A DNA stretch of 64,000 bases, taken from the NCBI GenBank assembly GCA_049512935.1, contig JBEKWR010000003.1, positions 111,025-175,024 on the forward strand, in the 5' to 3' direction. Shown one piece after another: positions 45,144 through 63,215 of this stretch; positions within the stretch are counted from its first letter, which is position 1; every line of letters begins with the position of its first letter. Both the position numbers and the translations under genes were made by a program. This DNA is from Candidatus Bathyarchaeia archaeon (GTDB taxonomy: Archaea > Thermoproteota > Bathyarchaeia > Bathyarchaeales > Bathycorpusculaceae). Below the pieces are notes generated by a model. That model was not told where the DNA came from, searched no databases, and worked only from the letters and a program-made list of their open reading frames with translations.

Positions 45144-45161
45144 TGTAGCTCCCCACCTACA
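45144..45161 (+). promoter_or_regulatory. 18-bp box (motif B)
   Basis: TGTAGC-tcccca-CCTACA followed by ttaaaa. Confidence 0.55.
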
Positions 45162-45189
45162 ACGTTAAAATGTCTTCGGAGGCACCCGT

Positions 45190-45502
45190 AGCACTAAAAC
45201 AGCAGGGGGATTTCAGATATTTCTCCATGGAAACTGGCACAATAGTGATGCACCTATCTATACCGGTGGTTTATGGGCTTTGGAATCCGCAAGTCACGTG
45301 AATATAATAGAAACGTTTCTGTGAAGAATAAGTTGTGGTGTGAGGATATAAATCCAAGAACGTGCTTTGGCGGACCCACACACGTTATCAGGAAGCGAAC
45401 ATAAGAGAAGTGACGAAAGTTACAAACTATTCGCATCCCTTTTAACGCTGATCCGCCAAAGCAGTGGGTAGATTCACGCTATCAGGACTTCGCCTTGTGG
45501 AT
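45190..45502 (+). ncRNA. Candidate structured ncRNA
   Basis: Nested complementary segments including a perfect 12-bp helix and a GAAA-tetraloop hairpin; no convincing ORF. Confidence 0.45.
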
Positions 45503-45511
45503 AAATAACTT

Positions 45512-45529
45512 TGTGACTGGAAGGTCACA
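45512..45529 (-). promoter_or_regulatory. Motif B
   Basis: TGTGAC-tggaag-GTCACA (perfect arms) + gcaac; ataaata adjacent. Confidence 0.8.
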
Positions 45530-45705
45530 GCAACAAGATTATCCCTTAAAAGGCCCAAAAGAAAACTTCCCTGAGGAAAAGTGGTAGGAATCAGTTCTTG
45601 CGGCTAATATTAAACCGTCATATTGACCAAGCCTATCATGACCTTTGAGAACCGACAAACAGAGAGGCTTCTAAACGCAAAATTAGAATAAAAAAGAAAA
45701 GAAGT

Positions 45706-46758
45706 TTAGGTTAGTTCATGGCTTTTAGATGCTTTTTGTTTAACTACCTTAACCAAGATAAACGAGCACGTAGCAATCGCCAAGGTCAGCAACAGAATGG
45801 ACGAAGTTAATTCAGGGACTTTTGGAGTTGATGTTGGACTTGTTGAACTTGATTTTGATGTTGGAGCCGGTGTAGCTGTTGATTTTGAACTTGAAGTTGT
45901 TGTTGGACTTGGGGAACTTGATTTTGATGTTGATGTTGGAGTAGATGTTGAACTTGATGTTGGAGTTGGAGTTGACGTAGTTGTCGAAATTGGTGATACG
46001 ATGGTGTTAGACTGTAAAGTAACTGCACTTTGTGCCAATGCCAAACCATTCAACGTTGCACCAGTAGTTAGTGCAATCGCTGTTTTGTCAAGAATAATTC
46101 CACTAAAGGCCGAGTGTGTTCCAAGTGTCGTTTGTCCAGCGACCACCCAGAAGATGTTACTTGCCTGTGCGCCACCACTCAAAATAATTTGTACGTTAGA
46201 ACTGACAGTGAGAGTTCCTGCTATCTGGAATACCCATTCAGCACTTGAACTTCCTGAGAGAGTGACAGCTGATGGTATTATCACATTGGTACCCCACTTG
46301 TAAATGCCAGCAGTTATTGTTAATCCACCGATGTTTCCTGCACCTAATGCATTGACGGGAGCAGGAGTGGTTAGTCCAGCCACAGTAGTATATGCCGTTT
46401 GCATATCGCTTATAGCCGTAGTCATCATAGTTGGAGTAGGTGCTGCATAGTTAGATGCGTATACCTTTCCAGTCACCAGAGAGGATGTCGAAAATGTATT
46501 CGAGGAATCCATTATCAACCCGAAGCCTGTTATGTATGAAGCAGCAGCTGGGCTTACTCCAATATTTCCAGTTATTGAAGTAGTTCCAGTGGTTGAGATT
46601 CCTGTTTTTGCTAAAATAGCAAAATTTCCTGCTGTACCAAGAACGTTAGCTGGTAACGTGTTTGCTGATACATTAGAGATCTGTATGATACCTAATAATG
46701 CTATGAAACAGAAGAAAGTGAAAAATACGCTTAATTGAGTCCTAGTCTTTTTCTTCAT
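45706..46758 (-). CDS. Ice-binding-like protein (DUF3494) with S/T linker and PEF-like C-terminal anchor
   Basis: LGTAGNFAILAKTGIS, ITGNIGVSP, AISDMQTAY, GIYKW, WVFQI, NIFWVV, LAQSAVTL; VPEL + TM + KQK. Confidence 0.9.
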   Translation of the reverse strand: MKKKTRTQLSVFFTFFCFIALLGIIQISNVSANTLPANVLGTAGNFAILAKTGISTTGTTSITGNIGVSPAAASYITGFGLIMDSSNTFSTSSLVTGKVYASNYAAPTPTMMTTAISDMQTAYTTVAGLTTPAPVNALGAGNIGGLTITAGIYKWGTNVIIPSAVTLSGSSSAEWVFQIAGTLTVSSNVQIILSGGAQASNIFWVVAGQTTLGTHSAFSGIILDKTAIALTTGATLNGLALAQSAVTLQSNTIVSPISTTTSTPTPTSSSTSTPTSTSKSSSPSPTTTSSSKSTATPAPTSKSSSTSPTSTPKVPELTSSILLLTLAIATCSFILVKVVKQKASKSHELT

Positions 46759-47017
46759 TTTTAATCACCACCTTTACACCTTGCTTTTTAATCACTTTAT
46801 TATTTTCTAATTTGGATCAAAACTTACCAAAAAAGGGGTTTAGTTTATTTCCATAACTTTTTGCCGGTCAACAGCCAAACGACTACGAAGATTACGGCAA
46901 TCACAAGCAGTATATTTATCAGTAGACCTATGCCTGGCAAAGCAAAGAACCCAACCGCCCAGAGTATCACAAGAATAATAGCAATCGTCAACCACTTATT
47001 CATAGCAAACTCTCCAA

Positions 47018-47308
47018 CTAAGTCTTAACTACTGGTCTTAGGTACATGTGAAGCTGATCTTTCGAAACTTTTAAGTGCAATCCATTGTCTGTCCAGCGAG
47101 CAACCCCTTTCTCCAGGGATGAAACGGCCAGCATGTTTCGCACTCCACCTTTCTTTACGCCAAGAACTGATTCAGCTATTTCCTTTTTCAATTCGATTTC
47201 AAGATGAGTTATTTTCCACTCTTCTGGATCTACTTCTATACTTTTGACTGTGCCGATTTTCTCGTCTAACGCAAAAACACTTCTGTTTATAAACTCTCTA
47301 GTCCTCAT
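47018..47308 (-). CDS. PRC-barrel domain protein
   Basis: EFINRSVFALDEKIGTVKSIEVDPEEWKITHL; GGAGG RBS. Confidence 0.75.
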   Translation of the reverse strand: MRTREFINRSVFALDEKIGTVKSIEVDPEEWKITHLEIELKKEIAESVLGVKKGGVRNMLAVSSLEKGVARWTDNGLHLKVSKDQLHMYLRPVVKT

Positions 47309-47382
47309 ACTTTCTCTATCCCTCCTTTCTACTCTCACAATTCGGAATACTTTATAAATGGTCATTGACTGGGTTAAGCGCT

Positions 47383-47400
47383 TGTGAATGTAAGCCCACA
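47383..47400 (-). promoter_or_regulatory. Motif B
   Basis: TGTGAA-tgtaag-CCCACA, 5 bp from TTAA. Confidence 0.7.
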
Positions 47401-47516
47401 CCGACATTCTGGCAGCTGCGCCTGCGCTAATCGGCAAAACTACTGAAAAGAATTTGAAACTTGAAGCGACAAGAAAAATGAAGTTTTAAATAAAAAAAGG
47501 AAAGGAAATGTTAAGT

Positions 47517-48524
47517 TTAAGTCACTGCAGTGGTTTGATCGATGATCTTGGCCTTTAGAGCATTCGTCTTCACTGATGCTATGCCATTTTCGGCTGCCTG
47601 TTTGGATAGGTAGGATTGGCTTACAGCGATTATTTGCCCGTTAGCTGCTTTCAGATGGAAACGGAACCTTTCAGGAGCATTGAATTGAATTTCGAAAACT
47701 GGGTCTTGGACAATTCCAGGTTCATGTTTTGTCTTTGCCAAAGCCCCTGCTGCCGTTGTGAGATCAGCAATCTTTGCGATTGGCGCGTTCTTCTTTATTG
47801 AATCAATGCCTTCTATGGCCGACTCTTTTGCTCCGTAGGCTTGGCTTACAGCGATTATTTGCCCGTTAGCTGCTTTCAGATGGAAACGGAACCTACCAAC
47901 AGTATCAATGAAAACCTCAAAAATTCCTGTAACTTTCGCTATTACAGGTGTCTGTTCCGTTATCACTTCAGTGGGTGGCAATGGTTTAGGCGCCGCCGGC
48001 ATCGGTTCTGGAACTTTCTCAGCTACGTGACCCATCTTTGTATGAGCATCCAGGGCTTCCTTGGTCATAAAGCCCATTCCGCACACAGGACACGTAAGCT
48101 CCATGTTTGGCATAAGCACTCTGTCCACAACTTGTATTATGCCGTTGTCTGTTACTATGTCTGTGCTTATAATGTGTGCGTCATTATTGATTATTGGGTT
48201 CATGTGAAGAGACCACCAATGATGGGCGTCAATCTTAACTTCTTGGCCTTGAAGAGTTTTAACGGTTTTCATTTGACTTATTTCGTCAATTGTAAACTTT
48301 CCAGGAATAACATGGTACATCAGAATCGCCTTGAGCTTTGGAACATTTTTCATTAGTCCATCGACTGTGCCTGCGGGAAGCAATGCAAAAGCGCGATCAT
48401 CTGGCGCAAGAATCGTGAACGGTCCTTTACCTTTCAATGTTTTAACTAATCCTGCCGCTTCTACTGCTGCGACAAGTTTTTCGAAACCCCCAGCCTCTAC
48501 AGCAATATCAACTATATCTGCCAT
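47517..48524 (-). CDS. Fasciclin (FAS1) - C2H2 zinc finger - tandem YegP (DUF1508) fusion protein
   Basis: DIVDIA..AG.F..LVAAV...GPFTILAP.D.AF...DNGIIQVVDRVL; CPVCG.GF...LDAH..MGH; two FRFHLKAANGQIIAVSQ repeats. Confidence 0.85.
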   Translation of the reverse strand: MADIVDIAVEAGGFEKLVAAVEAAGLVKTLKGKGPFTILAPDDRAFALLPAGTVDGLMKNVPKLKAILMYHVIPGKFTIDEISQMKTVKTLQGQEVKIDAHHWWSLHMNPIINNDAHIISTDIVTDNGIIQVVDRVLMPNMELTCPVCGMGFMTKEALDAHTKMGHVAEKVPEPMPAAPKPLPPTEVITEQTPVIAKVTGIFEVFIDTVGRFRFHLKAANGQIIAVSQAYGAKESAIEGIDSIKKNAPIAKIADLTTAAGALAKTKHEPGIVQDPVFEIQFNAPERFRFHLKAANGQIIAVSQSYLSKQAAENGIASVKTNALKAKIIDQTTAVT

Positions 48525-48594
48525 TCATTTTCACCTCCTTCCAACAATTTTCAAGTTCCATGAGTTTGTATAGTGCTCTTACAATAAAGAGCTG

Positions 48595-48612
48595 TGTGAC
48601 TGGGGAGCCCCA
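48595..48612 (-). promoter_or_regulatory. Motif B
   Basis: TGTGAC-tgggga-GCCCCA + gcaac; aataaa adjacent. Confidence 0.75.
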
Positions 48613-48790
48613 GCAACGAGCCTGCAAGCTAACTGTTAATAGCTGAGAGAAACGTGGTTTTCAGGTTAGTCTTCAGCTTTTTTTCCAGTCGAATTCACAA
48701 CCTGTTCCCGAAGTCTTAGCCAAAATTGCTTTCTTTTCCGCCGGTTGAAGGTTATGCCGAAATGTCAAAATTGTGACACTGATTGATAAC

Positions 48791-48985
48791 TCATCGAATT
48801 CGTAGATCCTTTTTTCTTTCAATCAAATCTGTAATTTCATCAAATTCGCTTGTGTAGTCCGTATGTTCTTTAACCAACCTTTTGAGTCTGTTTTGGTTAA
48901 AGTATCCTTCATAAAATCCGAAGAACATAATCGCAAAGAACCCATACACAAGATAATCTTGGCCAAACCTGCTTTCCGTTCCCAT
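48791..48985 (-). CDS. Small membrane protein or gene fragment
   Basis: One TM plus a charged tail. Confidence 0.4.
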   Translation of the reverse strand: MGTESRFGQDYLVYGFFAIMFFGFYEGYFNQNRLKRLVKEHTDYTSEFDEITDLIERKKDLRIR

Positions 48986-49023
48986 AGAGTTGATGTGTCG
49001 CTGAAGTCAATCCATTGGCTAGC

Positions 49024-49536
49024 CTAAAAGTGATTCATGATAAAATTCCTAACGGTTCTATGACTAGCCATGATTTCGACGATCTTTTTTGTGACTTGTG
49101 TTATTTGCGCATCAAACAGTCTAGTTATAAGCAATGAAAGCGCAAACGTAAATATGCCAAAGAAATAAAATGTAACAGCGTTTATTTTGCCAAGGTACAA
49201 GATGAAAAAGAATGTAACGGTTGAAGCTATCAGTCCCATGATGTAGGATCTTATAATGAAATAAAGTCTCTGCAACCACGTAGAAAACAATAGAACCTTG
49301 ATTACGGCTCTTTTCTCGATTTCACTTTCAGTTCCATTGCTTTGCTTTGTAATACTTCCTATCTGTTGCAGTACCCTTTTTGCGTAATGAATGTCTGCTA
49401 AATGTAATATTTTTTTTGCATAACGAGCGTCTGATAAATTTGTGGCAGTTGCGCTTTCAAGCTCTTTCAAGATCCTTTGTGCTATTTCGTCTATTTCGGC
49501 ATCTACTCGGTCTGCTTTAGCCTCCTTAGTTACCAT
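49024..49536 (-). CDS. Hypothetical protein with two C-terminal TMs
   Basis: 170 aa, with an internal ADxxYAKxxL duplication. Confidence 0.7.
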   Translation of the reverse strand: MVTKEAKADRVDAEIDEIAQRILKELESATATNLSDARYAKKILHLADIHYAKRVLQQIGSITKQSNGTESEIEKRAVIKVLLFSTWLQRLYFIIRSYIMGLIASTVTFFFILYLGKINAVTFYFFGIFTFALSLLITRLFDAQITQVTKKIVEIMASHRTVRNFIMNHF

Positions 49537-50190
49537 TATCTCACTTGAATATTCTAGTATCTTATTCCATCTGTGCTTCTAAATCTTTGTTTATAAAAAG
49601 AGCAACACGTATACACGCCTACTCCTAATCTTACCCACGCACGCTCCCATGAATGTAATGTCTGTCTCTCTGTTACCGTTTCAGTCACTGTCTCAGTCAG
49701 TCACGCATACATGCAATATTGTTGCGCGGCGCGCGCTGGGTATAGGCGCAGTTGTAGTGTGTGGGGATCTTGAGGTGTTTTTGGGATAGATTTATGGAAA
49801 AAGTGAAAAGCCGCATTAAGGCTCTACTTACATCGTGAGCCATACTTTAGTCACTTTCTTATGTACAGAGCGATTGAGGTATGGTTTACGATAAAACGTT
49901 AACGGCTCAAAGCACCTTCGAAACTGCTGATTCAGCAACACAATTTATTTATAAAGAAAGACTCTCGTTTAATTTGTTGCAGACGGAATATGACAATTAA
50001 CGGATTCAAGTCGAGTGTTTGGCACATTGCTACAATCGGAGTTGTAACAACCATGATGGCAGAAGATTACTCTGAGAAATCTATAAGTATGGAAAAGATG
50101 AAGAAGCCGATCGATCGATTCCTTCGATAAAGTGGACGACTTCTCGTTTATTTGCAACGGTCCCGCTATATGTAGGGTGAGGTGTGAAGC

Positions 50191-51303
50191 ATGAGTCAGG
50201 AGACCACGGATCCGACTGAAACACCGACGGGCGGCTTTCAGTTACCCAAATCGGTCATAAGGTGGATAGCCGTGGGCTTGGTTCTAACATCCGCCGTTGT
50301 TATCATTATCACTCTATATTCTGGCGTGAAGTTCTCGGATTTTGAAAGTATCGGTTTCTTGGCATTCGGCCTAGCAGCTGCTGCATCTGTGGCCAGGCTC
50401 CTCGTCCAGATCGTGCGGTTCAGAGTGATAACGGTAGGTTTGGCTGATGACCCAAAAATGGATTTGAATGGCTTGGCGATTACCAGAGTAAGCAGCGAGT
50501 TCATCTCGATAGCGACACCTGCATCGAGTACGGGCGTCTTTCTACGCACTGCTTGGCTGTCGAGCAAAGGGGTGACTGGCGGCAAGGCGCTCTGGATTGG
50601 CTATTTTGAGGTGCTCATCGAGGTATATGTTGGTGTTGGTCTCGGAATTGCTGGGGGCGTGTACGCCTTCTTGAACGGCGCGGTCGTCCTGGGGTCAACA
50701 ATTGCTGTGATTGCGCTGATCGTGCTTACGGGGTACACGATTATTTTCATAATTCCGGCTATGAGACCCATCAAGGTTCCTCATTTTGTTTTCAGGATTG
50801 CGGAGTTTCTGGTAGGTGGTCCAAGAGCTACAGCCCTCTATCTTCACGCTGTCGTCGGCTCTTTGAATTTTTCAGTTTCCGCGCGCTCGATTCTAACGAG
50901 ACGTATGTTGCCTGTAGCGGTAAAGGCTGTTGTTCTGACCATCGTTGAGGATTTTTTGGAGGGTGCGACTCTTTGGTTTGTGCTAAACGCCGCAGGCTTG
51001 AAGATCGACCTGTTTTCCTCAACCATTGTAGTCTTCGGTATCGACACCATCGCTCAACTTCCGATATCCATTGGCGGAGCGGGAATAACGGAGCTCACCA
51101 TACAGGCCTACCTAACTGGAGTCTATGGATTCTCCTCGTGGGCGTCCATTATAATATGGAGAATTGCCACTTATCAAGTCCTACTAGCGACAACTGGCAT
51201 CGTGTTTCTGTTCTTCGTGCGCAAGTATACGAGGCATGTCGAGAAGCCACATGAAGTGGAGCATCAGAAGGATGCTAAGGGATTCTTGCAAGATGGGGGA
51301 TAG
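50191..51303 (+). CDS. Lysylphosphatidylglycerol-synthase TM region / flippase-like (UPF0104) protein
   Basis: ATPAS.TG, PISIGGAGITE, IIIWRIATY; about 8 TMs; GAGGTG RBS. Confidence 0.8.
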   Translation: MSQETTDPTETPTGGFQLPKSVIRWIAVGLVLTSAVVIIITLYSGVKFSDFESIGFLAFGLAAAASVARLLVQIVRFRVITVGLADDPKMDLNGLAITRVSSEFISIATPASSTGVFLRTAWLSSKGVTGGKALWIGYFEVLIEVYVGVGLGIAGGVYAFLNGAVVLGSTIAVIALIVLTGYTIIFIIPAMRPIKVPHFVFRIAEFLVGGPRATALYLHAVVGSLNFSVSARSILTRRMLPVAVKAVVLTIVEDFLEGATLWFVLNAAGLKIDLFSSTIVVFGIDTIAQLPISIGGAGITELTIQAYLTGVYGFSSWASIIIWRIATYQVLLATTGIVFLFFVRKYTRHVEKPHEVEHQKDAKGFLQDGG

Positions 51304-51651
51304 AAAGGGATATCCCAGAGCAGAGCATTTCAGAGCAAGAACAACGAGCAGGAATCACGCATTGAGGCCGTAGTACTTCTACTCCGCGGGAATCATCTAG
51401 AACGCGTGGTTTCCAGCGAAGCTGATCATTGCGAGGGCGTTCTCGAAGGTTATCATGAAGCCAATCATCGGGTGCAGGCAATCGGGGTCACGTCTCAAAT
51501 GCCCACAGGATACAGTCTATGCTTGACTCCTTGCAACATTCTGAAGTAGTCTACGCATCAACATTGTAGCATGCGCGCAATCCAATATCCTGACGCTACC
51601 AAAATACTGAAATAGTTGTGTTAGTTGTATTTTTCGTCGTAAGGCTGGTCG

Positions 51652-51981
51652 TTGAATTCATTGTCAGCAACTTCAGGGATGGAAGACTTTGCAACCACGT
51701 TTGCAAATGCGGTGCACGGTGGACTGGATAAGGTTCTAGGTCAGAGCGGGGCGGCGGCGGTCTTAACTCACATGAAGATGACTAATAATCTTCCCGACCC
51801 GGCTGAATTCCATAAGAAGTTGCTCACACTTTTCGGCAAAGAAGCAACACTTTCGCTAGAAAGAGCGATAGTTAGGGACCTTGTTACGAGGCTCAAGTGG
51901 GCGCTAGAACTTTTGAGTATAGAAGGTCCCTTCGATTTCAACACGACCATGCTCAAGATACAGAAGGGTATGAAAAAATGA
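51652..51981 (+). CDS. Small DUF3227-like helical protein coupled to the ATPase
   Basis: LDKVLGQSG...PAEFHKKLLTLFG.EAT.SLERAI; ATGA overlap with the next gene. Confidence 0.6.
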   Translation: MNSLSATSGMEDFATTFANAVHGGLDKVLGQSGAAAVLTHMKMTNNLPDPAEFHKKLLTLFGKEATLSLERAIVRDLVTRLKWALELLSIEGPFDFNTTMLKIQKGMKK

Positions 51982-53408
51982 CGACTAGAAAAAGCCCAGG
52001 ATTGAAACCCCTTGTTCAAGTGAATAGCCAAGGGGGTACTGCTGATTCTGGAGCAGATGATCTAGCGGAGACACGGATAGCTGCTGTACTTGGTCTGAAA
52101 CAATTCACGCAGCGACCCGTCAGAACCTTACTCGTCAAAGGTCTCGCAGGTACTGGCAAGACAACAATCGCCCTTGAAATTCTCAAAGCAGCGGGCAAAG
52201 GGAAAGGCGCGTACATATCCTCAAGAGTTCCAAAAGAACTCCTTGAAATGCAGATTCCAGCCATGAAGGGGACCTTACAGAATCACGAGTTTTTGGACAT
52301 TAGACTCGAGGACGCGACATCAGCACTGGATTTTGTCATCCAACTGACGGCCAAGAAAGTCAGAACCATTGTGTTTGATAGTTGGGATGGTCTCGCGAAG
52401 GAATTGGAACCGAAGGAAAGGTTACGAGCCGAGAAGACTCTGTTGGCCCTTGCAAATAATTCCGGCGCCCAACTTGTCTTTGTTAGCGAGGAACCCGGCG
52501 CCACGACCATAGACTATCTCGTCGATGGTATCCTCGAGTTGGTGAGGGTTGAAGAACAAGACCGTGCGGTAAGAGAATTCATCATACACAAACTGCGTGG
52601 GACAAAGATACCCCAACACAAGTATCTCTTTACACTTCTAGAAGGAAAATTCACTTTCTTCGGACCCTACGCCATTCCCGATTACTCGAACGTGGACAAG
52701 TTTGTTCGAAGACCTGACATCGATGGATGCTATTCTTTCGGGAGTGGGGCTCTGGATAGACTGTTTGGAGGCATAATTCCTGGGAGCACCATGGCTATCG
52801 AATATGATGAGAATGTTCCCTACTCTGCGCTCAGAGCAATCGAGTTGCCTCCAATCATCAACTTTCTGTCAATGGGAAGGAGTGCGATCCTTCTCCCATT
52901 ACCCGGCGCAAATGACGAGCGAACGAACTCGATTCTGACCAAAACGCTTGGCAAAAGTGTTGTAGGTGACCGACTCAACATTCTCAACGTAGTCAGAACT
53001 AGTGACCTTGAGACCACGCAATTGCTGAAAAATGTCACGCCCAATGAAATCCATGAAATGGTAACTAGGGAGACGACGCGACTGCGGGAGAAATCGAAGG
53101 ACCGATCCGTGTTACTCGTAAAGTCCGTGAGTGCTCTAGAGAACTTATTCGCTTCGGATTTGGATTCACTGCTCGAAGTGACCTCCCAAGAGATAATCAC
53201 CCTCGCACAGTCGCATGATGCGCACATTCTCTTCTTGGCAAAGGATTCTCCTATCCGGTCGCGCATCCTCTCGATGAGTTCCAGTTACGCAAAATTGTTC
53301 GTCAGAGATGGCACCGTTCTAATGTTTGGCGTGAAGCCTCACACCGGGATTTACGTATTACAACACCTCGAGGATCCCACTTCTCCATCACTAACCCAAA
53401 TGGTGTGA
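51978..53408 (+). CDS. KaiC/RAD55-like ATPase (GvpD-type), second ATPase domain degenerate
   Basis: Walker A GLAGTGKT, FDSWD, DYLVDG, KLRG, YLFTL; second half FG..ALDRLFGG lacks a Walker A. Confidence 0.8.
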   Translation: MTTRKSPGLKPLVQVNSQGGTADSGADDLAETRIAAVLGLKQFTQRPVRTLLVKGLAGTGKTTIALEILKAAGKGKGAYISSRVPKELLEMQIPAMKGTLQNHEFLDIRLEDATSALDFVIQLTAKKVRTIVFDSWDGLAKELEPKERLRAEKTLLALANNSGAQLVFVSEEPGATTIDYLVDGILELVRVEEQDRAVREFIIHKLRGTKIPQHKYLFTLLEGKFTFFGPYAIPDYSNVDKFVRRPDIDGCYSFGSGALDRLFGGIIPGSTMAIEYDENVPYSALRAIELPPIINFLSMGRSAILLPLPGANDERTNSILTKTLGKSVVGDRLNILNVVRTSDLETTQLLKNVTPNEIHEMVTRETTRLREKSKDRSVLLVKSVSALENLFASDLDSLLEVTSQEIITLAQSHDAHILFLAKDSPIRSRILSMSSSYAKLFVRDGTVLMFGVKPHTGIYVLQHLEDPTSPSLTQMV

Positions 53409-54022: not shown

Positions 54023-54070
54023 AGCTATTCCATCATCCCTTTAATGTATGAAAAAATCTATTTAAATAGC

Positions 54071-54088
54071 TGTGAATGTGAGGTCACA
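54071..54088 (-). promoter_or_regulatory. Motif B
   Basis: TGTGAA-tgtgag-GTCACA + gcaac; tatttaaa adjacent. Confidence 0.8.
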
Positions 54089-54315
54089 GCAACAGTTAAG
54101 GTCAACTCTTTTTTTCTTCTGTTGTGAAATCATATGTTCATAATAATCGCTTATAAACTACCAAATGGATCAGAGTTTCACTATGAACACTTTGGCCGTT
54201 GTATGATTCGCGTCTAAACATACTGGAAAAACGAAGAATCTACCCCTAATTACTTTATATTCTTAAAAGTTATTCATATTCTAATTGCCCAGTGAGAAGA
54301 CGACGGGTTGCTCTC

Positions 54316-55344: not shown

Positions 55345-56142
55345 TTAGTCTTCAGTTTCTTTCCAGTCGGATTCAAAACTTGTTCTGAGTACGCCTATGA
55401 GGTTGCTGTTGTTTGTCCAAAGAGAAGGGCTTTCGCCTAATCCGCTTTCTTTGGAGGCAGTAATCAACGCTTCTTTATCATCAGACATTATGAAGTGATT
55501 CAAAGGTTCACGATGAAACTTTACGTGAACCGAAGCGCCATCGATGAGTTTCTGCACTTTTTCTTTGAGCAAAGCGTCCGGGCTTTCTCCTTCAAAAATT
55601 AGTCGAACCTGAGCCCCTTTCTTTATCGCCCGCTTGCATTCATCTGAAAACTGAGACAAAACCGGTATGATTCTTCCCTTGTCGGCAATCAACGCGACTT
55701 CTTTACTCGAGTTCTTAATTAGTTCTGAAGTCTTTGCCAAAATTGCTTTCTTTTCTGCTATCAGTATGTAGATGCTTTCTTCTCCGGGAAGCGGCTGCTT
55801 CCAGTCTTTAAGGGACAGCCTTTGGACACTGCTCCTCATACCCGTCAGCCGTTCATCCGATTTGCTTTTTTCTTCCGATACCAAGAGGCTTAATGCATCC
55901 GAAATCGGGGTCGCTCGAATCTTAGCTGGTTTGCCCAGTAATCTTTCAATCAAGCCCATTTTTTCGAGTGTCGGCAGAATTCTGTAGACGTCTTCCCTAC
56001 GCACTTTTGAAAACTTCGCTACCTGTCCTACCGTAGTTTTTTCCAGTTTAAGTATAGCTAAGTAAACCCTTGCCTGATTAAGACTTAAACCCAAACCAAG
56101 CAGGAGGTCAGTGTTTTCGTCGTCGGTCATTCTCACTGCCAT
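55345..56142 (-). CDS. TrmB-family transcriptional regulator
   Basis: LGLSLNQARVYLA...VRREDVYRILPTLEKMGLIE; C-terminal effector domain (FIMSDDKEA...LWTN...FESDW). Confidence 0.9.
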   Translation of the reverse strand: MAVRMTDDENTDLLLGLGLSLNQARVYLAILKLEKTTVGQVAKFSKVRREDVYRILPTLEKMGLIERLLGKPAKIRATPISDALSLLVSEEKSKSDERLTGMRSSVQRLSLKDWKQPLPGEESIYILIAEKKAILAKTSELIKNSSKEVALIADKGRIIPVLSQFSDECKRAIKKGAQVRLIFEGESPDALLKEKVQKLIDGASVHVKFHREPLNHFIMSDDKEALITASKESGLGESPSLWTNNSNLIGVLRTSFESDWKETED

Positions 56143-56401
56143 TACTTTTTTTTAGCTCAAATTATTTTTAAATCTTTTGGTTGTTTTCGCAAACTATACA
56201 ACTATCTTTGCTTTTCGAATGGTTGTGTTATTTTGATTTTGAAGGTTTCTATTTGTGCTAAGAGGATAAAAATTGTGCTGAACAGCGTGCACAGGTCTCA
56301 TCTGAAATACCGCTGGAAAAATTTTGAGGCTGGGTTAAAGTAGTAACTTTACAATTAGTCATCGATTGTTCTCTAAAGATTGAAAAAGAGAATGGTTGAG
56401 T

Positions 56402-56728
56402 TTACGCGAATACGAAGCCGATGATTAGGCCTATTATGAATCCGATGCTTAGCGGTAGTATGCCTATGATGAGTGCTCCGTATTGATATACGATGGAGCC
56501 GTATTGGGTTGCGTAATTTTTCAGCTCGCTAAGGCTTAATCCGAAGAAGCCGAAGTAGGCGGCTATGAAGAGTATGATTGCAGCTATGATGGCGATTTCT
56601 AGGAATAAATGGATCAGATAGCCTATAATTAATCCAACGACAAATATTATAATCATTAAAACAATCGGCGGCAAACCACCGATGCTTCCAGAAGTGATAA
56701 AATGAAATACTTGATCTATCGCGCCCAA
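56402..56728 (-). CDS. Small multi-TM membrane protein
   Basis: 3 TMs; GAGGAG RBS. Confidence 0.75.
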   Translation of the reverse strand: MGAIDQVFHFITSGSIGGLPPIVLMIIIFVVGLIIGYLIHLFLEIAIIAAIILFIAAYFGFFGLSLSELKNYATQYGSIVYQYGALIIGILPLSIGFIIGLIIGFVFA

Positions 56729-56768
56729 ACTTCACAACTCCTCAGTTAAGCAATAGGAGTGCAAATTA

Positions 56769-56807
56769 CTATTAAACTTGTGTAGCTGTAGCCCCCCAGC
56801 AACAGAG
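56769..56807 (-). repeat. 39-bp promoter repeat containing TATA and motif B (56781..56798)
   Basis: Identical to 58872..58910. Confidence 0.9.
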
Positions 56808-56977
56808 TGGCAACCCGAAAGACCTTCCTGTTTGCGTTGTCTTCTATGCTACAATAACGTAGGCTATGCGGTAACATAACATTTTTCGCTTTTTCAACGC
56901 GTCGCAGACAACAATATCTTCTATCCCAAGATAGTTTCAAAAATGAAATATCAAGAAAAGAGGGTATAGTTGGTTTT

Positions 56978-57928
56978 TTATCGTTTTAGTGTCTTGCGCG
57001 CTTTCATCTTCACAATGCCAAATGCAGCGAAACTGACTCCTATAGCCATTAATGCGCCTAAAGCACTTTCAGGCAACGGGAAAGGAGGGTTCATTTGGCC
57101 GGTGGTGTTATTGATAGTGCTACCGTTTAATGTAACCGCGCCGTTGAGTGCAAACGCTCTGCCATCCACCGTAGCAGTAGTGCCTACCCCGATCGATGAG
57201 TAAGCCAGAATGGTTCCCACGAAAGTAGAGCCTGATCCAAGAGTCGCTGAACTGCCAACTTGCCAAATTACGTTGCAGGGCTGGGTATCGCCGATGTAAC
57301 TTATTACGCTACTCGATGCAGTGATAAGCGTGCTCGCGCATTGGAAGACGAAAACAGCATTGGGGTTGCCCTCACCATTGAGAGTGAGAGTCCCTGTCAG
57401 CGGATTCGCAGACGTGAAGACGTAGACGCCGGGCGTCAGAGTTAGACCACTGAGGTCGGAGTAGGTCGCCGAAGATGGCAGATTGGAAGCTTCCGTATAA
57501 GCATTTGAAATATCGCCTGCAACTGTAGTCAACAGGGTGGGAGTAGATCCCCCATTTCCTGTATAATCAGCCGCAAATACCTGTCCAGTAACAAGAGAGG
57601 ATGTTGAAAATGTGTCTGTAGCATCCACTGTTAGCGGCGAAAAATCTCCCGTGATGGCCGTCGAAGTATAGCCCGTGCTTATCCCTACATCACCGACAAC
57701 CGTCATGGGTCCAGCGTTACTGATCCCAGAGTAGGCAAAAACCGCGAAAGGTTGAGCGCTTCCAAGATTTACGGAACTTGCAGTTATAGATGAAGTTGGA
57801 GCAGCTTTGACTGCGATTATACCTGTTGCAAGAAGCAGAAGACCTAAAACAAAAATTGTTCCAACGATTTTTTTATTCAGAATTATCTTATTCAAATTTA
57901 TAACCCTTCCTTTGATAATATTACCCAT
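56978..57928 (-). CDS. Ice-binding-like protein (DUF3494) with PEF-like anchor
   Basis: [56 protein letters not shown]; LPES + TM + KARK. Confidence 0.9.
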   Translation of the reverse strand: MGNIIKGRVINLNKIILNKKIVGTIFVLGLLLLATGIIAVKAAPTSSITASSVNLGSAQPFAVFAYSGISNAGPMTVVGDVGISTGYTSTAITGDFSPLTVDATDTFSTSSLVTGQVFAADYTGNGGSTPTLLTTVAGDISNAYTEASNLPSSATYSDLSGLTLTPGVYVFTSANPLTGTLTLNGEGNPNAVFVFQCASTLITASSSVISYIGDTQPCNVIWQVGSSATLGSGSTFVGTILAYSSIGVGTTATVDGRAFALNGAVTLNGSTINNTTGQMNPPFPLPESALGALMAIGVSFAAFGIVKMKARKTLKR

Positions 57929-58412
57929 CTTTTAGTGGCGGCTGCGAATATTTAAGCATGCATGGAAGTTGTCTCCTATTTGTCTATTAGTCGAGTTAGA
58001 AACTGCATGTTGTTATCAAAGGGTTGGTAGCCTGCAGCTTGGCGGAAGAGAGATAGACGAAACCGTCGTTGAAATGGGAGTAACTTAGAAAGCGGTCTTT
58101 CAGACGTTATCAGAGAACTCAGGAAGGAAAACGGAGCAAAATCACCAAATTATTTGATTCCTTATCGCGGTCTAGCAAAAATAAAGTTAAAAGTTTTTCC
58201 AGCTCACCCCCTTTACATCTGCCCATTCTATCTAGAAAATGACTGACTGCACGTTTCACATACTTATTGTGCAGTAATATTGCGCGCTTTCCAATTGTTT
58301 AAGCGTTTATTATTTTTTCCAGGTAAATAGCATTTGAGGTGAGTTTAGCCTTTTTTTCAGTTGTTCTGGTTGACATTTATACGCAGTCTATTGAATGCTT
58401 GTTGTGGTTTTT

Positions 58413-58835
58413 CTATATGTGGGGGAAGAAGGTTCCCGGAACCACCACTCCGAAGAGGGCTCCAAATATTATGCTTACCACGACGAAGATTATCCATGCC
58501 AATATGGCTATTCCGATGCCGGCCAGCCAGCCCGTTCTGAAGCTTGCTTTGTAAACCCATATCCAAGCTATGAGGGCTAAAACTAATGCGATTATGTATG
58601 CCGATGAGCCGATTGCCCCTCCCAGAAAGTAACCCACAACAAACAATACGACAGCATAAACTATTGGACCAAACAACGTAGCAATCATAGCGTCGCCAAA
58701 GGTGGCTTTTCCGCCAGTTACTGCTTTGCCAGCTAACCACACGGGTATTGAGACTATTATCCACAGAATAATCAAGCCAATTATGGTTACAATCAGACTC
58801 GTCAAAGTCATATTTCCAATAATCACATTGCTCAA
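58413..58835 (-). CDS. Four-TM membrane protein
   Basis: PVWLAGKAV...ATFGDAM...WVYKASF.TGWL. Confidence 0.8.
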   Translation of the reverse strand: MSNVIIGNMTLTSLIVTIIGLIILWIIVSIPVWLAGKAVTGGKATFGDAMIATLFGPIVYAVVLFVVGYFLGGAIGSSAYIIALVLALIAWIWVYKASFRTGWLAGIGIAILAWIIFVVVSIIFGALFGVVVPGTFFPHI

Positions 58836-58871
58836 AGGCTACACCTGTTAAGCTACTAGGCGTAAAAATGG

Positions 58872-58910
58872 CTATTAAACTTGTGTAGCTGTAGCCCCCC
58901 AGCAACAGAG
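58872..58910 (-). repeat. 39-bp promoter repeat containing TATA and motif B (58884..58901)
   Basis: Identical to 56769..56807. Confidence 0.9.
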
Positions 58911-59137
58911 CGGCGGCTATAGGATTAGGGAATACTCTTCTAGTTAACGATCAAACTTATTAGGCCTTGCAAAAAGGAAGCTATTTGTTTCTTTGAAGGG
59001 AGACCTTCTCTTTGTTAGGTTAAACATAAAATCTCACACTTTCCAACACAAAATAACACTATTCGAATATGCGTTTCCGAATTTTGTGTTCCATGCATGA
59101 GCAGCTGACAAGTTTTAAATAGAAACTGCAGAATACA

Positions 59138-59350
59138 ATGGTTGAGGAGAATTTTATGACTCAAGAAGTTGAAAAGGGGCTGGGGAAAATCGGTGTTACA
59201 GTGTCCAAACCAATACTGGCTTTGATAGCAATAGTCTTCGGCATACTTGTCATAGTCTTTCAAGGTTTGCTTCCATTGCTTGTTGGGCTATACTTCATAA
59301 TACAAGGTTTACTGTTCTTCATAGAATACCTCGAACAGAGAAGACGATAA
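59138..59350 (+). CDS. DUF3096-like small membrane protein
   Basis: PILALIAIVFGILVIVF..LL..LVGLYFIIQGLL. Confidence 0.7.
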   Translation: MVEENFMTQEVEKGLGKIGVTVSKPILALIAIVFGILVIVFQGLLPLLVGLYFIIQGLLFFIEYLEQRRR

Positions 59351-59645
59351 CAAGGAAAACTACCAACTTCTATCCTTTTTTTTCTTCTGCCTCAAAAGCC
59401 AAGTCAAAAAAGAAAAAAGGCAGGTTTATGCTCGCCAAGTCTTTTCTCAATGTGGCGCACGCTACACAAAATAGTTTTGGTTAATAGTTCTAATGTAGAA
59501 CCTACCATCTTAGCATGAGGAGAGCTATTACAAGGGTATGTATCATGGCCAACTACAATTCCGAAGGCAGTAGCAAAAAGAAGCGACAACTTAGATACTC
59601 GACTCCAATTCTCGAGCAAAACTTCGGTTGATGCCCAGATGTTGT

Positions 59646-59663
59646 TGTGGCTTCACAATCACA
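59646..59663 (+). promoter_or_regulatory. Motif B
   Basis: gttgt-TGTGGC-ttcaca-ATCACA-cacac-TTAAA. Confidence 0.75.
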
Positions 59664-59734
59664 CACACTTAAACCTGCCAATAAACTACATATAAAGTAG
59701 ATCATTTGGCTACCTAAAGCAGGAAAGGTTACCA

Positions 59735-61493
59735 ATGAGAAAGCAAACTACTTTTAAAAGAATAACTTGGGATAAAAAAAGCGTTAGCGCGATTATTGTT
59801 TTAGGTATTCTGCTTTTGGCAACATGTACAATCGCGTTCAAAGTTGAACTAATTTCAGCTGTAAGTCCAACGCCTGTACTTCTTGGAACGGCTTCTTATT
59901 TCTCTATTTTGGCCGGCTCCGGGATCACCAACACAGGTACGACCACAATTACTGCAGACGCGGGCACCTATCCCACTACCTCAGAGACAGGATTTAATAC
60001 TGTAACTTTTGTGGATGGAACTAACCACGCAGGCGATGCTGTCACACAGGGAGCCAAAGGTGACTTGTTAACTGCGTATAATGACGCCGCTGGACAAACA
60101 CCTATTACCGTGCCAACTGAACTCGGCGATACAACCCTGACGCCTGGCGTCTACAACTCCACATCTGGTACGTTTGATATAACCGGAACTCTCACCCTCA
60201 ATGGTGAAGGCAACCCCAATTCTATTTTCATCTTCCAGACAGCATCCACACTCATCACTGCAGCGGGTAGCGTCTCTACACCAGCTAGCGTTGTGAGCCT
60301 CATCAACGATACCCAGGCCTGCAACGTCTTTTGGGTAGTTGGCAGTTCAGCAACTATTGGTACATACTCTGTTTTCGCGGGAAACATTCTGGCTTATACA
60401 TCGATTACGGTGACTACTGGCGCTACGGTGAATGGCAGAGTGTTGGCACGCAATGGCGCGGTTACATTAGACAATGACACCATCTACACGGCAGATTATG
60501 ATAACATAGTTTTAGCTCCTGCATCTGCCACAAATCCCGTTGGCACCAACCATACCGTTACCGCAACGGTGGCTGGCACAGGAAATCCGCAGCCTGGTTT
60601 GAATATCACTTTTAATGTTGTTTCAGGTCCTAATACGGGAGCAACGGGTTCCAACATAACTGACAGCAAAGGGCAAGCATCATTCACCTATACGTCGAAC
60701 GGTTCACCAGGCACCGACCATATTACGGCAAGCTTCTTAAACGAGCAAAATGCGACAGTGACTTCAAACACAGTTACGAAAACCTGGACAACTCCGTCTC
60801 CAACTCCAACTCCAACACCTACACCAACTCCTTCGCCTTCGCCAACTCCAACGCCGACACCGACCCCAACGGCCACTCCAACTCCCACCCCAACTATAAC
60901 TCCTACACCAACGCCTACTGCAACACCTAAGCCTACTTGCACACCCAAACCGACATGTACGCCAAAACCTACGCCAACGCCCACTTGTACGCCAAAACCT
61001 ACCTGCACACCAAAGCCAACTTGCGCGCCAACTCCCACTTGCACACCTAAGCCTACTTGCACACCCAAACCGACATGTACGCCAAAACCTACGCCAACGC
61101 CCACTTGTACGCCAAAACCTACCTGCACACCAAAGCCAACTTGCGCACCAACCCCCACTCCCTCTCCCTGTTCAACCCAAGAAAAAGTACGAACCGACAT
61201 AATGAACTACATAAAAACATACCATTGTGAAATGGCACAGTATATGCAGGCTCTCTCTTGGACCGGCGGGTTAGTCAACACAGGCACGGTGGGAACAGCA
61301 ACCTACAAGTACCTAAGCAAACGGCTGGACAGTAATGATGACCTACCACATGGTTAATAACCCAGTGTACTCGGTGACCGTAACGTACGATAGGCAGGCT
61401 TCGTGTTTCACCCTTGAAAAAGTCATTGTGTATTGGCAGGGCACTTGGCAAAGCGGAGCAATCAGACAAACAACCTACAGATACACGCCGTAG
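59735..61493 (+). CDS. DUF3494 ice-binding-like + Ig-like (Big_1) + PT/CTPKPT repeat protein, with a probable single-base frameshift near 61320
   Basis: DUF3494 motifs; HTVTATV...[11 protein letters not shown]; uninterrupted ORF ends 61357; removing one A from agcAAAcggc extends it as NGWTVMMTY...WQGTWQ...YTP* to 61493. Confidence 0.8.
60790..61170 (+). repeat. Intragenic PT / CTPKPT tandem repeats with a 120-bp duplication
   Basis: 60923..61026 identical to 61043..61146. Confidence 0.9.
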
Positions 61494-61715
61494 CTTAAGC
61501 AGACAGCTGGCAATCTACCGTCCCCTTCTTTTTTATTGTGTGTTTAGCAATTTTAGGTGATTTTCCAAGCTTTAAAGGCAAACCTAACTATAACCAGTCA
61601 TCGCAACAGGATAAGATTCTGAAACTTTAATGTCGAGAAATCCCTCGAAAACGTGCTGTCTAAGCCACCGAAATCTTACGGAGCAATTACATCTCGCAGG
61701 GTATTCGCTTGTCTA

Positions 61716-61733
61716 TGTAGCCTCACAGTCACA
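61716..61733 (+). promoter_or_regulatory. Motif B
   Basis: TGTAGC-ctcaca-GTCACA-tagct-ATTAAT. Confidence 0.8.
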
Positions 61734-61787
61734 TAGCTATTAATCCCCTCGTCTGCTTATAGTTAAAAATAAAGTTGGTTGAATGTT

Positions 61788-62201
61788 ATGGCTGCTCCTG
61801 ATGATATAGCGAAAATTCTTGGTCCAAACGAGAAGGTAGAGTTATACATTAAGCAGAAAATCTACCATCCTCAGATTAATATTGACTCTGCAGTTTTTAC
61901 GAACGAACGCATGATTCTGCGGCATCCTCACGCGCTCGGTTTGAAAAAGAATTACACCGATTACAATTACCGAGACATAGCTAACGTGGTGTTGGAAAAA
62001 GGTGTACTGCGGTCAACTATCAAATGCACCCTCAGGCTGGGTGGAGAGCCTCTGGCGTTGGGCGACTTGCCTAACTCCGAAGCACAACAGGCATACGGAA
62101 TCATCCGAGAGAACATTGGCAAATTCCAAGCACCATTTTCAACAGGATATAATGATCCTAATCCGTCCAACACTCCAGATGCGGCTAAGACGCCAAAATA
62201 A
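61788..62201 (+). CDS. Bacterial-type PH-domain (bPH) protein
   Basis: ILGPNEKV...AVFTNERMIL...DYNYRDIANV...KG.L.STI. Confidence 0.75.
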   Translation: MAAPDDIAKILGPNEKVELYIKQKIYHPQINIDSAVFTNERMILRHPHALGLKKNYTDYNYRDIANVVLEKGVLRSTIKCTLRLGGEPLALGDLPNSEAQQAYGIIRENIGKFQAPFSTGYNDPNPSNTPDAAKTPK

Positions 62202-62282
62202 TCGCTTCGGTAATTCCGTTAAGTCTGGAAGGTTCATTCACCGCTTCCTTCTTTTAAGGACAACTTGTCAAAATCATGTTAC

Positions 62283-62300
62283 TGTGACCTCACAGCCACA
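62283..62300 (+). promoter_or_regulatory. Motif B
   Basis: gttac-TGTGAC-ctcaca-GCCACA-cagac-TTAAT. Confidence 0.8.
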
Positions 62301-62346
62301 CAGACTTAATTGTGCAATAACCGACCTTTAGTTAGAGGTGATATGA

Positions 62347-62484
62347 ATGGTTGACGAAAAGAAAAAAATTGAAAACGCCGCTGAGAAAACTGGAGAAGCA
62401 GTCGGCAAAGGAATCAAAAGAGGCGCTAAAGCCGTAGAAGACTTTGGGAAGGGCGTAAAGAAAGAACTCAAGAAAAAAGAATAA
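62347..62484 (+). CDS. 45-aa hydrophilic LEA/CsbD-like microprotein (not in the ORF track)
   Basis: GAGGTGA RBS; MVDEKKKIENAAEKTGEAVGKGIKRGAKAVEDFGKGVKKELKKKE; T-rich terminator after it. Confidence 0.7.
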   Translation: MVDEKKKIENAAEKTGEAVGKGIKRGAKAVEDFGKGVKKELKKKE

Positions 62485-62648
62485 GGGAGCAAAATCCCCC
62501 TTTCTTCGAAACAAAAAAGAAAAGTACTTGTTTTTATCTATGTGAATTCGCAGAGCAATGGTTAGCAAGAGTGTTCGGTGAAAAAGCTTAAGCATTAGAA
62601 CGTTATTGTTTATAGCGTGTTTTTGTAGCTAGGGAAGTGTAGGTTGTT

Positions 62649-62900
62649 ATGGGTTATTCAAGAAGGCAAGGTGGTAGTTACGAGGGAAGGCGGGGTCATG
62701 GCAAGGGGTCTAAACGTTGCCCTGTTATGGTAGGAGAAGAATTAGAAGTGGATATTGTGGAATTGAGCCCAAAAGAGGAAGGCATAGCTAGAGTTCAAGG
62801 ATTAGTGATACACGTTGCCGACACAAAGCCCAAAGATCACGTTAAGATAAAGATAACGCGGATTGGCGGCGCAACGGCAGAAGCAAAAGTCATAGAGTAG
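62649..62900 (+). CDS. Stand-alone TRAM-domain protein
   Basis: G/R-rich N-terminus; PV..GEE..V.I.......EGIARVQGLVI.V...K..D.VKIKI. Confidence 0.85.
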   Translation: MGYSRRQGGSYEGRRGHGKGSKRCPVMVGEELEVDIVELSPKEEGIARVQGLVIHVADTKPKDHVKIKITRIGGATAEAKVIE

Positions 62901-62977
62901 CACGCGCGCCTAAAAACGCGATTAAATTTTGAAAAAATCGACGTTAAGATTTGTGGCGAAATTTAAGGTTTCATTGT

Positions 62978-62995
62978 TGGTTGAGTACAGTCACA
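62978..62995 (+). promoter_or_regulatory. Motif B (degenerate left arm)
   Basis: TGGTTG-agtaca-GTCACA-tagtc-TTAAG. Confidence 0.6.
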
Positions 62996-63053
62996 TAGTC
63001 TTAAGTGTTTTTTCGCTTCTCCATACCTTTATTCTCGCCAGTTGGGGAGGTGA

Positions 63054-63215
63054 ATGTTTTTGTCTAAGAAAACCAGTCCTGAAAGCATGGAGCCCAAGAT
63101 GACTTCAGAAGGCAAATTCCAGTGCGAAGCTGACAACAGAACCTTCAATACACGAGAAGAGTACGACAGGCACTGCAGCGAATCTCACATGCGAAGCGGC
63201 AGCAAAGGATGGTAG
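63054..63215 (+). CDS. About 53-aa C2H2-like zinc-finger microprotein (not in the ORF track)
   Basis: GGAGGTGA RBS; ...GKFQCEADNRTFNTREEYDRHCSESH... Confidence 0.65.
   Translation: MFLSKKTSPESMEPKMTSEGKFQCEADNRTFNTREEYDRHCSESHMRSGSKGW

Follow-up and report, generated by a model that had tools for sequence, protein, structure and literature searches.

A conserved promoter-proximal dyad defines a stress-type gene set in Bathyarchaeia and points to a TrmBL2-like candidate regulator

The last 19 kb of a 64,000-nucleotide stretch of DNA from a Candidatus Bathyarchaeia archaeon (contig JBEKWR010000003.1, positions 111,025 to 175,024 of the forward strand; this whole stretch is hereafter called the window) carry repeated copies of a palindromic box, found a few nucleotides (nt) upstream of TATA-like elements. 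The evidence supports the box as a conserved promoter-proximal cis-element that defines a gene set, and our confidence is high that the element and its regulon are real and conserved. On balance, we favor the reading that the box is the operator of a sequence-specific factor, likely a TrmBL2-like protein encoded among the boxed genes, which would activate a dispersed regulon of stress-type genes in Bathyarchaeia.

The initial annotation of the window listed about 11 copies of an imperfect palindrome, TGTGAC-N6-GTCACA. With up to two mismatches allowed, this palindrome has 7 matches in the window where 2.0 ± 1.4 are expected (none of 100 shuffled sequences reaches 7), and these matches account for just 6 of the 11 listed positions. 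Aligning all 11 sites by gene orientation yields a longer, directional box, GTTGC-TGTGRC-nTCACA-nTCACA, followed after a 5-nt gap by TTAAnn, ATTTAT or CTTTAT. Reduced to its 9-base skeleton, GT-N3-TG-N8-CA-N3-ACA, the box is matched 19 times in the window when both strands are counted, at 10 sites in all. The expectation is 0.52 ± 0.90 strand matches; no shuffle in 100 reaches 19, and the highest reaches 4. Nine of the ten sites match on both strands, offset by one base. Every one is intergenic, and they span only 45138–62300. Scored by leave-one-out with a position weight matrix (PWM), 9 window sites obtain 15.7–31.4 bits. The site at 62973 (62978 in the initial annotation) obtains only 3.8 bits and does not match the skeleton, and is therefore graded weak. 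The reported copy number thus stands, as ten skeleton sites and one weak eleventh. The observation that the housekeeping half of the window has no comparable copy also holds: positions 1–45000 contain no skeleton match, and no match of at least 12 bits to a PWM trained only on other genomes. The sole match there to the window-derived PWM scores 8.3 bits, at 42755, and lies within the GlgB open reading frame (ORF). By our count from the coordinates, start codons in the window are 46–75 nt beyond the box ends.

To look for the box in other genomes, we used the FAS1-DUF1508 protein encoded next to one of its copies. This protein has 655 homologues in a protein collection, the best of which are 60–89% identical. 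A profile built from a 34-sequence alignment (the window protein and 33 of the 120 listed homologues) was used to scan genome contigs, giving 79 loci in pieces of up to ~21 kb. Fifty-nine loci (989 kb) were classed as Bathyarchaeia and the other 20 (290 kb), which are bacterial, served as controls. The FAS1-DUF1508, GlgB and TrmB proteins of the window are 87–93% identical to those of locus L001, a ‘Candidatus Bathyarchaeota’ contig from a metagenome-assembled genome (MAG). At a threshold of 14 bits, the window-derived PWM finds many matches in the Bathyarchaeia loci, yet none in 12 of them; the 20 bacterial loci likewise lack any. When a 40-nt PWM was trained anew on the other loci, it found, at 15 bits or more, 172 matches in the Bathyarchaeia loci and 12 in the window, with none in the 20 bacterial loci or in positions 1–45000 of the window; because it descends from the window sites, this matrix is not fully independent of them. 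The skeleton is a more neutral measure, and has 2 single-strand matches in the 20 bacterial loci. Three of the loci counted as Bathyarchaeia carry bacterial titles: L014 (Desulfosporosinus), L027 (Sulfotelmatobacter) and L043 (Acidoferrum). Their FAS1-DUF1508 matches are 54–71% identical, full-length in L014 and L027 and covering residues 1–195 in L043, and L014 has a box of 28.5 bits. Judged by these sequences, they are probably Bathyarchaeia contigs mis-binned into bacterial MAGs.

Conservation upstream of orthologues was analyzed in the 46 loci whose FAS1-DUF1508 match extends to the N-terminus and whose sequence continues for 300 nt or more upstream of it. Loci with only a C-terminal DUF1508 match were excluded, as were L026 (match from residue 21) and L043 (90 nt upstream). 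A same-strand skeleton lies within 300 nt upstream of the homologue in 42 of the 46 loci, compared with 57 of 2473 other 300-nt windows in the same loci, a background that includes the true sites of other genes. The four without a skeleton are L021, L025, L027 and L054, and L054 has a 21-bit PWM match that is one skeleton base off. In a subclade comprising L004, L006, L009, L012, L016 and L030 the box has diverged, with skeleton and spacing unchanged. The conservation that the initial annotation had put forward as a check is therefore seen at the FAS1-DUF1508 genes, and the box is present in about 50 Bathyarchaeia genomes.

The placement of the box is that of a promoter element. The initial annotation reasoned that a box as frequent in coding sequence, or one at no fixed distance from TATA, would argue against such a role. 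Instead, none of 184 oriented matches falls inside an ORF, although ORF interiors make up 54.6% of the sequence. A same-strand ORF start lies between −80 and +250 nt for 140 of the 184, with a peak in the distance from box end to ORF start at 40–80 nt; the remaining 44 have no such start by our crude ORF calling. Columns beyond the 23-nt PWM carry an independent signal of ~1 bit, TTAA at 29–32 and T at 34. Among 169 skeleton sites, 147 match on both strands, and at 157 the fixed offset carries, on one or both sides, a TATA-like element scoring above the 95th percentile of the background; at 12 it does so on neither side. The spacing of ~5 nt between the box end and a TATA-like element, described initially for the window sites, thus holds there and at most skeleton sites overall. 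The 5-nt spacer is not A-rich. By this stricter score, eight sites have a TATA-like element on both sides, so that one box appears to serve two divergent promoters. Single boxes that score in both orientations are found at L052 1812/1813, L053 8408/8409, L017 10573/10574, L002 949/950 and L015 12620/12621. In L052, L017, L002 and L015 a TATA-like element lies 5 nt away on each side, between divergent genes, and there one operator appears to serve two promoters; the L053 box is doubtful, because its TATA-like element is on the + side only.

We determined the symmetry of the box from 94 sites of other genomes. Complementary pairs (0/23, 1/22, 2/21, 5/18, 6/17, 7/16 and 8/15) center between box positions 11 and 12, and by these pairs the operator is a 24-bp dyad, TGTnRCTGT-N6-ACAGYnACA, with the half-site TGTnRCTGT. 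The register TGTGAC-N6-GTCACA given initially is therefore off. Its axis, at 14.5, pairs only the outer TGT/ACA triplets, and positions 9–11 carry low information; conservation is symmetric when the axis is set at 11.5. Two positions consistently distinguish the half-sites, with WG on the distal side and, on the opposite strand, GA on the proximal side, and the box therefore has a direction. No covariation was detected across the arms: complementarity equals the expectation from column composition at all 13 pairs in the 94 sites. There is thus no sign of selection for a hairpin, and a structural reading of the box was rejected. The pattern is the one that a protein dimer reading each half-site on its own would leave.

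The genes behind the box recur between genomes. A box is found upstream of 9 of 10 members of the PRC96 family (96-residue PRC-barrel proteins), 8 of 9 of mem108 (108-residue membrane proteins), 46 of 75 FAS1-DUF1508 genes and relatives, 5 of 10 in the bPH family and 5 of 8 in a 68-residue family. YdjM (0/11) and a radical-SAM protein (0/9) have none. Box-downstream genes in other loci also encode Hsp20 (L022), a 240-residue PRC-barrel protein, flavodoxin-DUF1508 fusions, Holin-X-like proteins and an RPE65 oxygenase. A true CsbD lies downstream of a box only in L009 (47.5 bits against a cut-off of 40).

By these families, the box gene set may reasonably be regarded as a parallel of the bacterial general-stress regulons. 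In bacteria, Hsp20 is a member of such regulons. Further, csbD depends on sigma-B (PMC2248587), a table for Escherichia coli O157 places yegP with RpoS (PMC2907692) and a PRC-barrel gene has an EcfG promoter (PMC6599016). The lmo0937 gene is lowered by a sigma-B inhibitor and controlled by PrfA (PMC3225968). The initial statement that Lmo0937, CsbD and YegP are members of SigB/RpoS regulons is therefore borne out for csbD and yegP but overstated for lmo0937, which the inhibitor study ties to sigma-B only by way of the inhibitor and PrfA. The sigma-B, RpoS and EcfG regulons have small-protein families of obscure function in common with the box targets. They differ in being controlled by alternative sigma factors, whereas here a dyad operator lies beside an archaeal TATA element. 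Because its targets are the protein kinds found in bacterial general-stress regulons, the box regulon is probably a stress or stationary-state program. A full-text literature search returned bacterial work only and no description of an archaeal general stress regulon.

A candidate regulator is encoded within the island. The gene at 55345..56142 (−) specifies a 265-residue TrmB-family protein, characterized with Pfam, phmmer and Foldseek. Its N-terminal winged helix-turn-helix (residues 16–80) matches PF01978 at 55.3 bits against a cut-off of 25.6, and PF11495 is a marginal match at 24.8 bits against 22.2. The phmmer alignment to the 264-residue TrmBL2 (PDB 5bpd) covers residues 17–264 at E 3.3e-9, with an identity to TrmBL2 of only 18–20%. 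An AlphaFold model of the protein has a predicted local distance difference test score of 81 and a predicted template-modeling (TM) score of 0.49. Foldseek places this model closest to 5bpd (E 5e-16), and finds TrmB (3qph) at E 1.8e-11; the TM-scores are low, ~0.41–0.45, because the domain orientations differ. The NCBIfam equivalog model for TrmBL2, NF041141, scores 35.7 bits against a cut-off of 530. By these comparisons the protein shares the TrmBL2 architecture but is not a TrmBL2 orthologue. It is also not of the sugar-sensing TrmB/TrmBL1 type, which has ~340 residues and a complete C-terminal effector domain, since the protein has 265 residues and best matches the 264-residue TrmBL2, described as having no sugar-binding effector domain (PMC4158304). 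The winged-helix region is near-invariant among orthologues, and Y53 is invariant in 14 sequences; the tyrosine of ‘RTYDVL’ aligns with that of ‘DVYRIL’, the DNA-recognition tyrosine of TrmB and TrmBL2 (PMC4158304).

This gene is associated with the box by its genomic context. No other family accompanies the query gene as often as TrmB, which is present in 18 sources (17 loci and the window), against 11 for the next family. There are 16 TrmB orthologues (76–93% identity), a count that takes in the window's own, and 13 of them are followed by a same-strand box within 160 nt, mostly 82–92 nt after the end of the match, and the gene behind that box varies (PRC96, FAS1 and others). By comparison, 25 of 860 other genes of at least 100 residues are followed by a box. 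With the limit set at 200 nt downstream, the count is 12 of 18 for TrmB, compared with 5 of 75 for FAS1, 1 of 10 for PRC96 and 1 of 9 for mem108. Besides TrmB, positions 43–64 kb of the window encode no transcription factor B (TFB), TATA-binding protein (TBP) or other canonical DNA-binding regulator. TrmB, which the initial annotation named as the nearest candidate, is the best candidate regulator, because of its linkage to the cluster and to the boxes that follow it, and we consider it likely that the TrmBL2-like protein regulates the box genes.

In the mechanism we favor, the TrmBL2-like protein would bind the 24-bp dyad as a dimer and cover the region from ~5 to 29 nt upstream of the TATA element, beginning just upstream of the position of the B recognition element (BRE). 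The bound factor would help TBP or TFB to bind, and in this way activate transcription. The targets switched on would be DUF1508/YegP fusions, PRC-barrel and bPH proteins, the lmo0937 family, CsbD, Hsp20, small membrane proteins and a structured small RNA, and the regulon would serve a stress or stationary-state program. Activation seems more likely than repression, because the site always lies upstream of TATA at one fixed offset; this invariance, together with the use of both sides of the dyad, favors contact with TBP or TFB over simple occlusion. With the operator adjacent to BRE/TATA on its upstream side, the box promoters share the layout of activator-dependent archaeal promoters of the TrmBL1-upstream, TFB-RF1, Ptr2 or OxsR type. 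Sites of TrmBL1 in front of BRE/TATA lead to activation and those behind it to repression (PMC4706686), TFB-RF1 recruits TFB from a position immediately ahead of a weak BRE (PMC5937170), and OxsR, of the TrmB family, activates under stress from a motif 5′ of BRE/TATA (PMC9426492).

Several observations weigh against activation by this protein. No box lies directly upstream of a TrmB gene (0/18), and the TrmB gene of the window is itself not followed by one. TrmB often lies downstream, on the same strand, of box-driven mem108 or p113 genes (p113 being a small Cys/His protein), and could therefore be a target rather than the regulator, or be autoregulated by read-through. The closest relatives with solved structures, TrmB and TrmBL2, are described as repressors or chromatin proteins (PMC4706686, PMC4158304). 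When 280 upstream regions lacking a box were searched for motifs by expectation maximization, the result was a diffuse AT-rich pattern that peaked at no position and gave no clear BRE/TATA consensus. The loci are ~20-kb pieces around one gene family and are biased to this island. Finally, the geometry allows occlusion equally well, since only ~5 nt separate the TATA-like element from the near end of the box, which overlaps the contact between TFB and the BRE. The same regulon could thus be held off by a bound dimer that occludes BRE/TATA until stress releases it. Repression by TrmB works through steric hindrance at BRE/TATA, TrmBL2 acts as a repressor when bound at promoters (PMC4706686, PMC4158304), and TrmBL2 is the best structural match of the candidate. 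However, no site overlaps or lies downstream of TATA, the upstream position is tied to activation in all three of the studies of TrmBL1, OxsR and TFB-RF1 (PMC4706686, PMC9426492, PMC5937170), and occlusion would need no strict phasing. We regard repression as the less likely, though still a serious, alternative.

The position of TrmB behind box-driven genes also bears on the identity of the factor. If TrmB were a mere member or neighbor of the regulon, the box would be bound by a factor encoded elsewhere, either another transcription factor or a specialized TFB or TBP paralogue reading an extended upstream element. Consistent with this, a TrmB orthologue (at least 70% identity, within 10 kb) is found in only 14 of the 59 loci, so that some boxed loci have none nearby. 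However, the arrangement of a gene followed by a box is specific to TrmB (12/18 or 13/16) and is seen for true members at frequencies of 1/9 to 5/75, and the island itself offers no other canonical regulator gene. A 24-bp dyad suits a dimeric winged-helix factor, whereas the BRE contact extends over only ~6–7 bp. A factor from elsewhere therefore seems quite improbable to us. We also asked if the box could be something other than a transcription signal, such as a recombination site (an integron attC-like site or the end of a miniature inverted-repeat transposable element), a box of a replication origin, or a hairpin in RNA or DNA. In favor of such readings, the sites form palindromes and the surrounding gene order is shuffled between genomes. 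However, no integrase, transposase or Orc1/Cdc6 domain is encoded in 43–64 kb; the TATA-like element is at a fixed offset, with starts 40–80 nt downstream; and what is conserved across genomes is sequence beyond structure, without covariation between the arms. An attC-like or recombination site was rejected on these grounds, and we consider any role outside transcription highly implausible. The operator of a TrmBL2-like activator remains our preferred explanation.

The regulon can be placed among known archaeal systems. The Thermococcales glycolytic motif (TGM), read by TrmBL1 (Tgr), is likewise palindromic, with spaced half-sites at many promoters and a reader of the TrmB family, and its upstream sites activate (PMC4706686). 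The operators differ, being TATCAC-N5-GTGATA for TrmBL1 and the 24-bp dyad described above for the box. TrmBL1 has a sugar-binding domain, whereas the candidate here, with 265 residues, is TrmBL2-like. The majority of TGM sites are repressive and located downstream of the promoter, whereas the boxes here are all upstream, at one offset; TGM targets are sugar-metabolism genes, and those of the box are small stress-type proteins. TrmBL2 (5bpd, 5box, 5bqt) is similar to the candidate in length, winged helix, long helix and phospholipase D (PLD)-like C-terminal domain. It is described as chromatin-like, binding coding and intergenic DNA (PMC4158304), in contrast to the strictly intergenic, sequence-specific box. 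The nearest model for the proposed mechanism is TFB-RF1 (PF1088) of Pyrococcus furiosus, which acts by TFB recruitment from a small palindrome, TCTG-N5-CAGA, just upstream of BRE/TATA; the likeness is in operator placement. That study describes two target promoters (PMC5937170), whereas the box is found at many. OxsR of Haloferax volcanii is, like the candidate, a TrmB-family protein, with a role in stress and a motif 5′ of BRE/TATA (PMC9426492). It differs in consisting of one winged-helix domain, in sensing redox state through a cysteine and in having a CG-rich motif, and the single cysteine of the candidate is not conserved among its orthologues. In these terms the regulon is an archaeal transcription-factor regulon, probably under a TrmB-family protein, in which the phasing to the promoter is unusually strict.

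Within the window, most boxes are oriented with a downstream gene, as stated initially. The first copy, at 45139..45161 (listed initially as 45144), does not follow this description, since its orientation is ambiguous. It adjoins the p113 gene (44751–45092, −) and faces a region resembling a non-coding RNA, the skeleton matches on both strands, and the box PWM prefers the + strand (13.5 bits) while the TATA-like score prefers the − side. Orthologues of p113 in L031, L048 and L050 also have the same type of box alongside. Six boxes lie on the − strand. The box at 45512..45534 (33.7 bits; 41.4 bits with the PWM trained on other loci) is followed 5 nt downstream by ATTTATCC and drives a region without a conserved or credible ORF. 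The box at 47383..47405, with TTAACCCA 5 nt downstream, drives the 96-residue PRC-barrel gene (47018–47308, −), and that at 48595..48617 precedes the gene for a FAS1 domain with two DUF1508 (YegP-like) domains (47517–48524, −). The box at 54071..54093 precedes the gene for a 50-residue membrane protein of the lmo0937 family (DUF5670; 53870–54022, −), assigned by NCBIfam NF033488 at 30.8 bits against a cut-off of 30. The box at 56781..56803 precedes mem108 (56402–56728, −), with the TrmB gene next on the same strand, and L001 shares this order of box, mem108 and TrmB. The box at 58884..58906 precedes the gene for a 140-residue membrane protein (58413–58835, −), whose L028 orthologue is likewise boxed.

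Four boxes lie on the + strand. They are found at 59641..59663, preceding the gene for a 540-residue Ice_binding (DUF3494) and Big_1 surface protein (59735–61357, +); at 61711..61733, preceding that for a bPH-domain protein (61779–62201, +); at 62278..62300, preceding that for a 45-residue lysine-rich protein (62347–62484, +); and at 62973..62995, the weak and probable box, which scores 19.4 bits with the PWM trained on other loci, has TTAAGTGT 5 nt downstream and precedes the gene for a 53-residue Cys/His protein (63054–63215, +). Orthologues of the lysine-rich protein in L002, L019, L050 and L055 have boxes of 31–34 bits. This protein matches no CsbD or LEA model, and the LEA/CsbD label that it was first given is dropped; the PRC-barrel, FAS1-YegP, Lmo0937-like, bPH and ice-binding assignments are retained. 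The Hsp20, GlgB and TRAM genes of the window had been thought to fit the same program. In the PWM scan no box lies directly upstream of any of them, nor of the TrmB gene.

The surface protein at 59735–61357 (+) is one of three Ice_binding (DUF3494) paralogues in the window, the others being at 45706–46758 (−) and 56978–57928 (−). They are 37–46% identical, and only the one at 59735 has its own box; the other two lack one immediately upstream. All three proteins begin with a hydrophobic stretch that, judging from the sequence itself, is probably a signal peptide. Two contain long linkers rich in Pro and Thr (and Cys), and a hydrophobic tail ends the two shorter proteins. In the 79 loci, tblastn found no counterpart of at least half length for these three genes, for a KaiC/GvpD-like ATPase gene or for an LPG-synthase-like gene, and all five are outside the conserved core seen here. 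The ATPase gene (51897–53408, +), which encodes a KaiC/GvpD-type P-loop protein (GvpD_P-loop, E 1.5e-15), lies in the middle of the island. In haloarchaea, GvpD modulates an activator.

The box at 45512 appears to drive a structured non-coding RNA, a candidate of ~109 nt that forms a long hairpin at 45358..45466 (−). The element is kept downstream of the same type of box in L005 (5503–5611, −), L058 (15693–15798, −), L031 (4567–4677, −) and L054 (2182–2291, +), and no reading frame is conserved in it. Its consensus fold comprises 30 pairs at −34 kcal/mol, with 1 compensatory pair among 5 sequences, and a search of 45100–45560 against Rfam gave no match at E ≤ 1. By its sequence and predicted fold, the element is a candidate new small RNA of the regulon. 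The neighboring p113 (105–113 residues, with a Cys/His patch and no Pfam family) keeps an atypical copy of the box alongside in the window, L020, L031, L048 and L050. In three of these loci (L020, L048 and L050) the TrmB orthologue comes immediately after p113, and in L031 p113 is ~1 kb upstream of it. This arrangement could reflect an autoregulatory operon, or p113 could be a co-factor.

Other features of the window lie outside the boxed region. A 16S rRNA gene begins at 63656; its start is the one Rfam match in the whole window, and no tRNA genes were found in the window. In the housekeeping half, a Fer4/CCG (HdrBC-like) pair adjoins NiFe-hydrogenase small and large subunits and a HycI-type maturation protease (9036–12916, +, and 14697–15191, +). 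A tandem pair of paralogues with DUF1246 and DUF1297 (16975–19151, +), an architecture that we take to be that of PurP-type FAICAR synthetase, lies beside purE- and purC-like genes.

Bathyarchaeia, most of them uncultured, occur in abundance in soils, peat and sediments, and almost nothing was found on their gene regulation; within the collection searched, a full-text literature search returned no description of a TrmB regulon or promoter motif from the class. The present analysis yields an operator sequence, a named candidate regulator and ~15 target families, mostly of obscure function. Metatranscriptomes can thus be read for a defined regulon, and the candidate protein can be tested without culture. 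DUF1508/YegP, CsbD, lmo0937, PRC-barrel and bPH proteins are tied to a common program in a second domain of life, which argues that these families act jointly. More tentatively, the system may be a class-wide general stress response that operates without sigma factors, in which a TrmBL2-type factor has turned into a sequence-specific activator, reading a dyad exactly 5 bp from TATA and firing to either or both sides, with a gene set convergent with those of sigma-B, RpoS and EcfG and a structured small RNA dedicated to it. This is a possibility rather than an expectation. If true, general stress regulons would have arisen by a second route, independent of the first, and the system would provide a handle on the physiology of an abundant uncultured class.

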